Source: Escherichia coli
Lineage (GTDB): Bacteria > Pseudomonadota > Gammaproteobacteria > Enterobacterales > Enterobacteriaceae
Assembly: GCF_003334255.1 (NCBI RefSeq)
Contig: NZ_QOWU01000052.1
Direction: 5' to 3' (one strand)
DNA length: 41,323 bases
Shown piece by piece: positions 41,084 through 41,175 of this stretch. Made by a program: the position numbers and the translations under genes. Every line of letters begins with the position of its first letter. Position 1 is the first letter of the stretch. A model generated the notes under the pieces. The model worked only from the letters and a program-made list of their open reading frames with translations. It searched no databases and had not been told where the DNA came from.

Positions 41084-41129
41084 ATTCATATTTAAAATGT
41101 TAAATTGAATTGATATTTTAAATATGAAT
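41084..41129. repeat. Perfect 15-bp inverted repeat (attcatatttaaaat / attttaaatatgaat) with a 16-bp spacer upstream of chiA
   Basis: Arms at 41084-41098 and 41115-41129 are exact reverse complements; lies ~150-190 bp upstream of the chiA start in AT-rich DNA. Confidence 0.7.
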
Positions 41130-41175
41130 AATTTATTCGTTCTGACAGTACGAATAAGATATGCCGTCAACAAAT

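Follow-up and report, generated by a model that had tools for sequence, protein, structure and literature searches.

An AT-rich chain of palindromes upstream of chiA in Escherichia coli as a possible core of its H-NS-silenced region

The analyzed stretch of Escherichia coli DNA (41,323 nucleotides, hereafter the window) carries a chiA–tufA region that is identical to that of E. coli K-12 (NC_000913.3). The chiA gene and its secretion system are textbook “cryptic” genes of E. coli, and ChiA has been linked to gut colonization by adherent-invasive strains. A preliminary description of the window had reported inverted repeats in AT-rich DNA upstream of chiA and before the tufA terminator, and the coordinates of chiA, the tufA stop codon, and the terminator confirmed this placement. 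The features of the locus are given below, with distances counted from the chiA transcription start; the repeats have no strand assigned.

38243–40936, minus strand: chiA coding sequence, 897 aa, bifunctional chitinase/lysozyme
40986–41014, minus strand: predicted chiA core promoter, with −35 TTGAAG (41014–41009), a 17-bp spacer, and −10 AATAAT (40991–40986)
41010–41021, no strand: third copy of the arm word, TTCAATATGAAT, 11/12 identical to 41118–41129 and overlapping the chiA −35 hexamer
41084–41098, no strand: promoter-proximal 15-bp arm, ATTCATATTTAAAAT, at −105 to −119
41084–41129, no strand: extended imperfect palindrome of 46 bp, with 20-nt arms and a 6-nt center
41115–41129, no strand: distal 15-bp arm, ATTTTAAATATGAAT, at −136 to −150, the exact reverse complement of 41084–41098
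41126–41138, no strand: bridging perfect palindrome GAATAA-T-TTATTC, 13 bp, overlapping the first repeat at its end and the second at its start
41133–41157, no strand: second palindrome, TTATTCGTTCTG-a-CAGTACGAATAA, 25 bp, with 12-nt arms matching at 11/12 positions, at −154 to −178
41177–41204, minus strand: tufA intrinsic terminator, a G+C-rich 12-pair stem followed by a T run
41228–41230, minus strand: tufA stop codon

The transcription start of chiA, first mapped by Francetic et al. (2000), was confirmed by 5′-RACE at position 3467918 of NC_000913 (.2) (Salscheider et al., PMC3950696). Converted to the coordinates of version 3 of NC_000913, it corresponds to position 40979 of the window. 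The conversion is based on an offset of 1978 bp, which we take to be the difference between the two versions; it agrees with the version 3 annotation and with a genomic-SELEX peak listed at 3467930, in the chiA/tufA spacer. The converted start lies 43 nt 5′ of the ATG and 7 nt 3′ of the predicted TTGAAG-17-AATAAT promoter. Relative to it, the first repeat extends from −105 to −150 and the second from −154 to −178, and neither is inside the chiA mRNA.

The geometry of the first repeat was reproduced exactly as initially reported: the two 15-bp arms are perfect reverse complements separated by 16 bp. The symmetry continues inwards, giving 20-nt arms (41084–41103 and 41110–41129) that are complementary at 18 of 20 positions (90%), and the resulting 46-bp palindrome has a GC content of 11%. 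Alternatively, the same segment can be read as a ~20-bp near-palindromic unit present in two direct copies at a 25-bp spacing (41084–41103 and 41109–41128), as either arm of the first repeat comes close to a palindrome by itself and each ~20-bp unit is ~90% self-complementary. In the second repeat, the reported pairing of TTATTCG (41133–41139) with CGAATAA (41151–41157) was also confirmed, and it was found to extend to 12-nt arms that flank one central base. Because the 13-bp palindrome links the two repeats, 41084–41157 can be treated as one chain of interlocked dyads.

The preliminary description considered this symmetry unlikely to occur by chance, which was borne out for the 15-bp repeat and failed for the 7-bp repeat. 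When the 292-bp spacer was shuffled 3000 times with its dinucleotides preserved and loops of up to 50 were allowed, perfect inverted repeats grew no longer than 13 bp; 14 or 15 bp was never reached, and the probability of 12 bp or more was 0.005. The 15-bp repeat is also the longest perfect inverted repeat of the 41-kb window, in which the next three are 12–14 bp long, have 2–4-nt loops and G+C-containing arms, and resemble terminator hairpins. The 7-bp repeat as first described is ordinary, the median longest repeat in the shuffles being 7–8 bp, and its 12-nt extension is moderately unusual (single-stranded DNA fold, z = −3.1, with 1 of 200 shuffles folding equally well). The palindrome chain is real and non-random.

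Analysis of base composition showed that the AT-richest 50 bp of the window, 41088–41137, has a GC content of 8%, compared with 49.5% overall, and contains 8 TpA steps. Next in AT-richness is a 50-bp stretch (26521–26570, 10% GC) of the divergent promoter spacer between gspA and gspC; the gspC-O genes encode the secretion system thought to export ChiA. This second stretch contains a 25-bp palindrome of its own, TATGTATTTA-ttaat-TAAATACATA, at 26531–26555. In the literature, chiA is called H-NS-repressed with reference to Francetic et al. (2000), and its expression in an hns stpA mutant is as high as in a bglJC strain, where BglJ-RcsB is active (PMC3950696). The gspC-O operon is likewise described as H-NS-repressed in the SlyA paper (PMC5797941). 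The AA/TT autocorrelation of the DNA gave weak peaks only, at 11, 22–26, and 33 bp. A high-affinity H-NS motif, tCGATAAATT, was reportedly defined by Lang and co-workers in 2007. Searched as TCGWTWAATT with up to 2 mismatches, the motif was not enriched in the window (125 matches vs. 122 expected from shuffles), and a single match, with 2 mismatches, falls inside the repeat at 41097–41106.

The distribution of the locus was then compared among 5426 complete E. coli genomes. The chiA-spacer region was present in 3141–3168 of them (~58%) and missing from ~42%, and the palindrome element occurred only in genomes carrying chiA. Where chiA is absent, bfd directly follows tufA, and the homology between carrying and lacking E. 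coli genomes breaks off at the base of the tufA terminator (41176). A single chiA-lacking genome was examined (36800–41176 compared with L001, 3143–4000); the gsp cluster was missing from it too, and its bfd-bfr had ~77% DNA identity to K-12, which is similar to the distance between K-12 and Enterobacter. Looking for the same palindrome elsewhere in the genome, as had been proposed, yielded no further locus: there was no second copy within the window, and a BLAST search of the 5426 E. coli genomes, which is blind to degenerate 20-bp sites, returned no other copy of at least 20 nt even at E ≤ 10. The second place reported in each genome record presumably corresponds to the palindrome matching itself on the opposite strand. 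Among plasmids and phages, only chance AT-rich matches were obtained. A dispersed repeat or the end of a mobile element (REP, MITE, or IS inverted repeat) was also considered and was rejected on the basis of the one locus per genome and the chance nature of the plasmid and phage matches.

Within E. coli, the K-12 form of the palindrome was found in 1444 carriers. In most of the others, 41099 is A rather than G, so that the perfect arms extend to 17 bp and one mismatch remains in the 20-nt arms, compared with two in K-12. About half of the genomes carry variants that weaken the stem. In seven E. coli alleles, 4 variable sites were counted in the 74-bp block and 10 in the other 166 bp of the spacer. 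The changes at 41088 (strain Z226-6), 41099, 41101, and 41156 break pairing, and no compensating change was observed. Judged from these alleles, the block is under no extra constraint compared with the rest of the spacer within E. coli. All sampled alleles retain at least 15 bp of perfect symmetry, at an overall divergence of just 0–5%.

Two further observations concern individual E. coli forms of the locus. In strain KFu022 (L009, 748–1445), an IS1A element lies between the two palindromes, at ~41135, so that the tufA side retains only 41136–41176; chiA of this strain is annotated as a pseudogene lacking the N-terminus. In addition, a second form of ChiA (P0002–P0066; L010, L011) consists of 799 aa, is 88–91% identical to the first, and lacks ~100 residues of repeated chitin-binding modules. 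The spacer upstream of the 799-aa form hardly differs from the other E. coli alleles, which points to recombination inside chiA.

Taken together, we give a probability of about one half to the reading in which the chain of palindromes forms the core, richest in A+T, of the upstream region of H-NS-silenced chiA, with the symmetry as a lineage-specific by-product. This reading was adopted because the repeats occupy −105 to −178 from a 5′-RACE-mapped start that fits the predicted promoter, because 41088–41137 is the AT-richest stretch of the window and the runner-up spacer borders the H-NS-repressed gspC-O, and because the chiA segment is strain-variable, with homology ending exactly at the tufA terminator, a signature of acquired DNA. 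According to the proposed mechanism, H-NS, together with StpA, would nucleate on the TpA-rich stretch 41084–41157 (8–11% GC). It would then spread or bridge across the next ~100 bp, cover the −35 and −10 hexamers, and keep chiA off. Base composition and minor-groove shape would matter in this process, and dyad symmetry would not. Binding of H-NS to these exact bases is presumed from composition and from statements in the papers cited above. As to the symmetry, it may have originated when a ~20-bp unit was duplicated locally, or copied by template switching, in a weakly constrained AT-rich spacer, and may now be decaying by point mutation, the K-12 G at 41099 cutting the perfect arms from 17 to 15 bp. 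Local copying is the most likely origin of the E. coli-specific symmetry. Against the nucleation reading stand the lack of enrichment of the H-NS motif, the size of the repeat, which is far beyond chance, and two results presented below, namely, the alignment of the distal unit in two orthologous loci (L014 and L004) and an 11-mer shared between spacers.

Comparison with orthologous loci demonstrated that the gene order tufA-chiA-bfd-bfr is conserved in Citrobacter rodentium, Enterobacter, and several further lineages. Two orthologous loci came from a species-genome scan, and 8 further lineages from a protein search with contig look-ups; the diverged lineages all have ~70–76% DNA identity to K-12, with none at an intermediate distance among them. 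In the eight diverged tufA–chiA spacers, which are equally AT-rich, no long inverted repeat was found apart from the terminator. No K-12 16-mer was conserved across the diverged spacers beyond shuffles (best z of 2.9 vs. a family-wise median of 2.7), and the nearest two diverged spacer types (L012 and L014) were not found in E. coli genomes. Absence of the palindrome from orthologous chiA upstream regions had been named in the preliminary description as an argument against its function if regulation was unchanged; the absence was observed in all eight spacers and concerns the sequence alone, not regulation. In a MAFFT alignment, the block CATwTTTAAAwTATCrATTC aligned the K-12 distal unit with L014 and L004, which is suggestive and not significant; the L004 spacer has TTGATA-N7-TATCAA. 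The alignment of the distal unit in these two loci would fit a protein site. Separately, some Enterobacter strains (L019, 2001–4490) carry at another locus a paralogous chitinase (829 aa, 66% identical) directly 3′ of a gene for a sigma-54-dependent activator, which points to a regulation quite different from that of the tufA-linked copy.

These comparisons bear on the rival explanation that survives best, which we nevertheless regard as unlikely: that the repeats are operators for a sequence-specific regulator. The recognized units would be ~41085–41103 and 41110–41128 (TTSATATTT-n-AAATATSAA), 25 bp apart, with TTATTCG-N11-CGAATAA and the half-site at −35 as additions; dimers bound there could either repress chiA or counteract its silencing, perhaps through a loop to the −35 copy at a distance of 108 bp. 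The near-palindromic character of each arm, which has a typical operator length, the overlap of the third arm-word copy with the −35 hexamer, and the partial alignment of the distal unit with L014 and L004, including TTGATA-N7-TATCAA of L004, are in favor of such operators. Conservation is against them, since no word is shared across lineages beyond shuffles and the eight orthologous spacers have no long repeat. So are the polymorphisms, which break the dyads uncompensated at the frequency of the flanks, and the lack of another copy of at least 20 nt in 5426 E. coli genomes.

The suggestion in the preliminary description of a site for a dimeric regulator therefore gained no support: in addition to the results on orthologues and polymorphisms, the 46-bp repeat exceeds the span of one dimer and is more aptly seen as the two ~20-bp units, operator dyads being expected to cover ~14–24 bp with defined half-sites, and a published mutation had no effect. 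The latter was made in a predicted BglJ-RcsB motif ~150 bp 5′ of the chiA start, where the first repeat has its distal end, and did not affect activation by BglJ-RcsB (data not shown in that work); no BglJ-RcsB box was found beside the chiA promoter (PMC3950696). Searches of the literature on chiA in combination with NagC, LeuO, ChIP-exo, the chiA promoter, and yheB revealed no factor binding here, and the palindrome sequence appeared in print, in the literature searched, solely as a tufA engineering primer. An informal comparison by hand with the consensus sites of ArgR, Fur, FNR/CRP, NagC, Fis, IHF, NsrR, PhoB, OmpR, Cra, and MetR turned up no convincing match. Should the palindromes be a specific operator after all, they would provide a handle for finding the natural inducing signal of chiA.

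A further argument for operators comes from a shared word. The 11-mer AATATGAATAA of the distal arm, upstream of chiA, recurs in two other AT-rich spacers of the chiA/gsp loci, bfd-chiA and gspA-gspC. Written as (A)AATATGAATAA(A), it occupies 41120–41131, 38161–38172, and 26560–26571, and on the opposite strand 41010–41021 and 41084–41095; five sites contain AATATGAAT. An 11-mer shared by all three spacers occurred in none of 2000 dinucleotide shuffles, with the regions chosen after the word had been seen. No equivalent shared word was found in the orthologous loci. The ~20-bp units and AATATGAATAA might be the recognition sequence of a putative regulator that co-controls ChiA and the type II secretion system exporting it, an idea that we consider a long shot. 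Such a co-regulator of chiA and gsp could be a counter-silencer or a co-repressor acting alongside H-NS, and if it existed, it would account for the switching-on of these two “cryptic” loci in nature.

Another explanation, which we rate below the operators in general and as rather improbable, is that the repeats have no function at all. They would then be a neutral product of slippage or template switching, and their deletion would change neither H-NS silencing nor chiA expression. Several of the results given above are in agreement with this: the repeats are specific to the E. coli lineage, the density of SNPs is as in the flanks, the arms are decaying in K-12 and in other alleles, IS1 is inserted at ~41135 in KFu022, where chiA is truncated, and ~42% of the genomes live without the whole segment. 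However, the repeats form the AT-richest point of a region reported to be bound by H-NS and would be expected to attract H-NS whatever their origin. In addition, the sampled E. coli alleles all keep at least 15 bp of perfect symmetry, though they are only 0–5% apart. The nucleation reading shares with the neutral one the view that the symmetry is incidental, because it is neither conserved in the orthologues nor constrained within E. coli. Some process must have created a perfect repeat of 15–17 bp, and we infer, rather than demonstrate, that it is incidental.

A role at the RNA level is more doubtful than any of the above. The hairpins might protect chiA as back-up terminators or insulators in read-through of tufA, which is very highly expressed, or an antisense RNA with a 20-pair hairpin might be made from the plus strand. 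Both hairpins are indeed present in the minimum-energy fold of the spacer RNA (z = −4.4), and on the tufA/chiA strand the first hairpin is followed by GUUUCUGUUUUU. On the plus strand, both arm mismatches turn into G·U pairs, and the fold reaches −17.7 kcal/mol (z = −7.2); a promoter-like TTGAAT-16-AATAAT is located at 41105–41132 of this strand. However, unlike intrinsic terminators, the sense-strand stem is almost pure A-U, with a loop of 16 nt and a folding energy of only −11.3 kcal/mol, and a terminator scan called just the tufA terminator (41204–41177). The best Rfam match scored 20.9 bits against a threshold of 50 bits (E = 0.33), which corresponds to no Rfam family. Further arguments against an RNA role are that the chiA mRNA begins ~105 nt 3′ of the repeat, which is therefore outside the 5′ UTR, that the repeat is absent from the orthologues, and that promoter-like sites are not enriched (5 vs. 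2.2 ± 1.9 expected).

Two candidate identities of this kind were rejected. An RNA-family element was dismissed after a permissive Rfam scan of 40700–41323 gave sub-threshold matches only, driven by the terminator, and an intrinsic terminator was dismissed given a stem almost lacking G+C pairs and a scan that found the tufA terminator alone. No alternative identity was assigned to the repeats, because they are single-copy and have no significant Rfam match and no real plasmid or phage match. Two features of the plus strand can be recorded here. The K-12-specific G at 41099 keeps pairing in the plus-strand RNA only, where the stem is a continuous one of 20 pairs. A transcript predicted from 41105–41132 towards the two-way tufA terminator (41105–41210) would be ~65 nt long and would have the second palindrome as its 5′ hairpin; it has no Rfam match.

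The least probable of the explanations is a supercoiling-sensing cruciform, in which the palindromes would extrude and absorb supercoils or form a four-way junction, thus altering promoter activity or H-NS binding. Single-strand folding energies make a cruciform physically possible: with near-perfect AT-only arms of 20 nt around a 6-nt center, the first repeat of K-12 is predicted to fold as single-stranded DNA at −10.3 kcal/mol (z = −4.0), the commonest allele (one mismatch, 17-bp arms) at −12.1 kcal/mol (z = −5.5), and the two hairpins together at −16 kcal/mol (z = −6.1). A precedent is said to exist in the H-NS-silenced bgl promoter, where Mukerji and Mahadevan reportedly described in 1997 a cruciform-prone dyad in the upstream silencer. 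However, the perfect arms are 16 bp apart, short repeats whose centers are large or mismatched seldom extrude in vivo, about half of the genomes have a stem weakened by variants, and no supporting data were found.

Returning to the reading of the chain as the core of an H-NS-silenced region, the link to chiA silencing made in the preliminary description was upheld in part. The position of the repeats in an upstream region reported as H-NS-repressed (PMC3950696) and their non-random character agree with it, whereas the mechanisms based on symmetry gained no support. The silencing of chiA by H-NS is already known, and the present result is best filed as the addition of an AT-rich dyad element in its upstream region. 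As found, the element adds no more than a precise landmark to this promoter, namely, the 74 bp in which AT content and symmetry are greatest. It also illustrates cleanly how a long perfect repeat may arise and decay in weakly constrained AT-rich DNA.

Comparison with known systems places the element as follows. Like intrinsic terminators and the palindromes of REP and MITE repeats, it consists of hairpin-forming inverted repeats directly after a highly expressed operon. It differs from the terminators in a stem almost without G+C pairs, a weak U tract, and the lack of a call in the scan, and from REP and MITE repeats in being single-copy in the window, the 5426 E. coli genomes, plasmids, and phages. 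The sequence TATGAAT...ATTCGTT at 41123–41141 resembles both half-sites of the RcsAB/BglJ-RcsB box (TaAGaa/tatTCctA; central wwTTCykA), but has 5 extra bp between them.

The upstream silencer of bgl is similar in that an AT-rich dyad lies 5′ of a cryptic promoter that is silenced by H-NS and activated by BglJ-RcsB and LeuO. Insertion of an IS element in the same kind of region is a further likeness, represented here by IS1 in KFu022. Unlike in bgl, the insertion in KFu022 accompanies a truncated, not an activated, chiA, there is no sequence relationship between the two regions, and activating insertions or deletions are not known for chiA. H-NS sites, unlike the present element, are not defined by long perfect dyads, and their 10-bp high-affinity motif is not enriched here. 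Nevertheless, the element resembles the H-NS nucleation and silencing regions 5′ of genes that E. coli acquired horizontally, namely, chiA itself, gspAB/gspC-O, bgl, proU, and hlyE, where a strain-variable segment has extremely AT-rich and TpA-rich DNA ~100–180 bp 5′ of a weak sigma-70 promoter. As in other H-NS-silenced systems, the gene is reported to be derepressed in hns mutants and to be activated by counter-silencers such as BglJ-RcsB.
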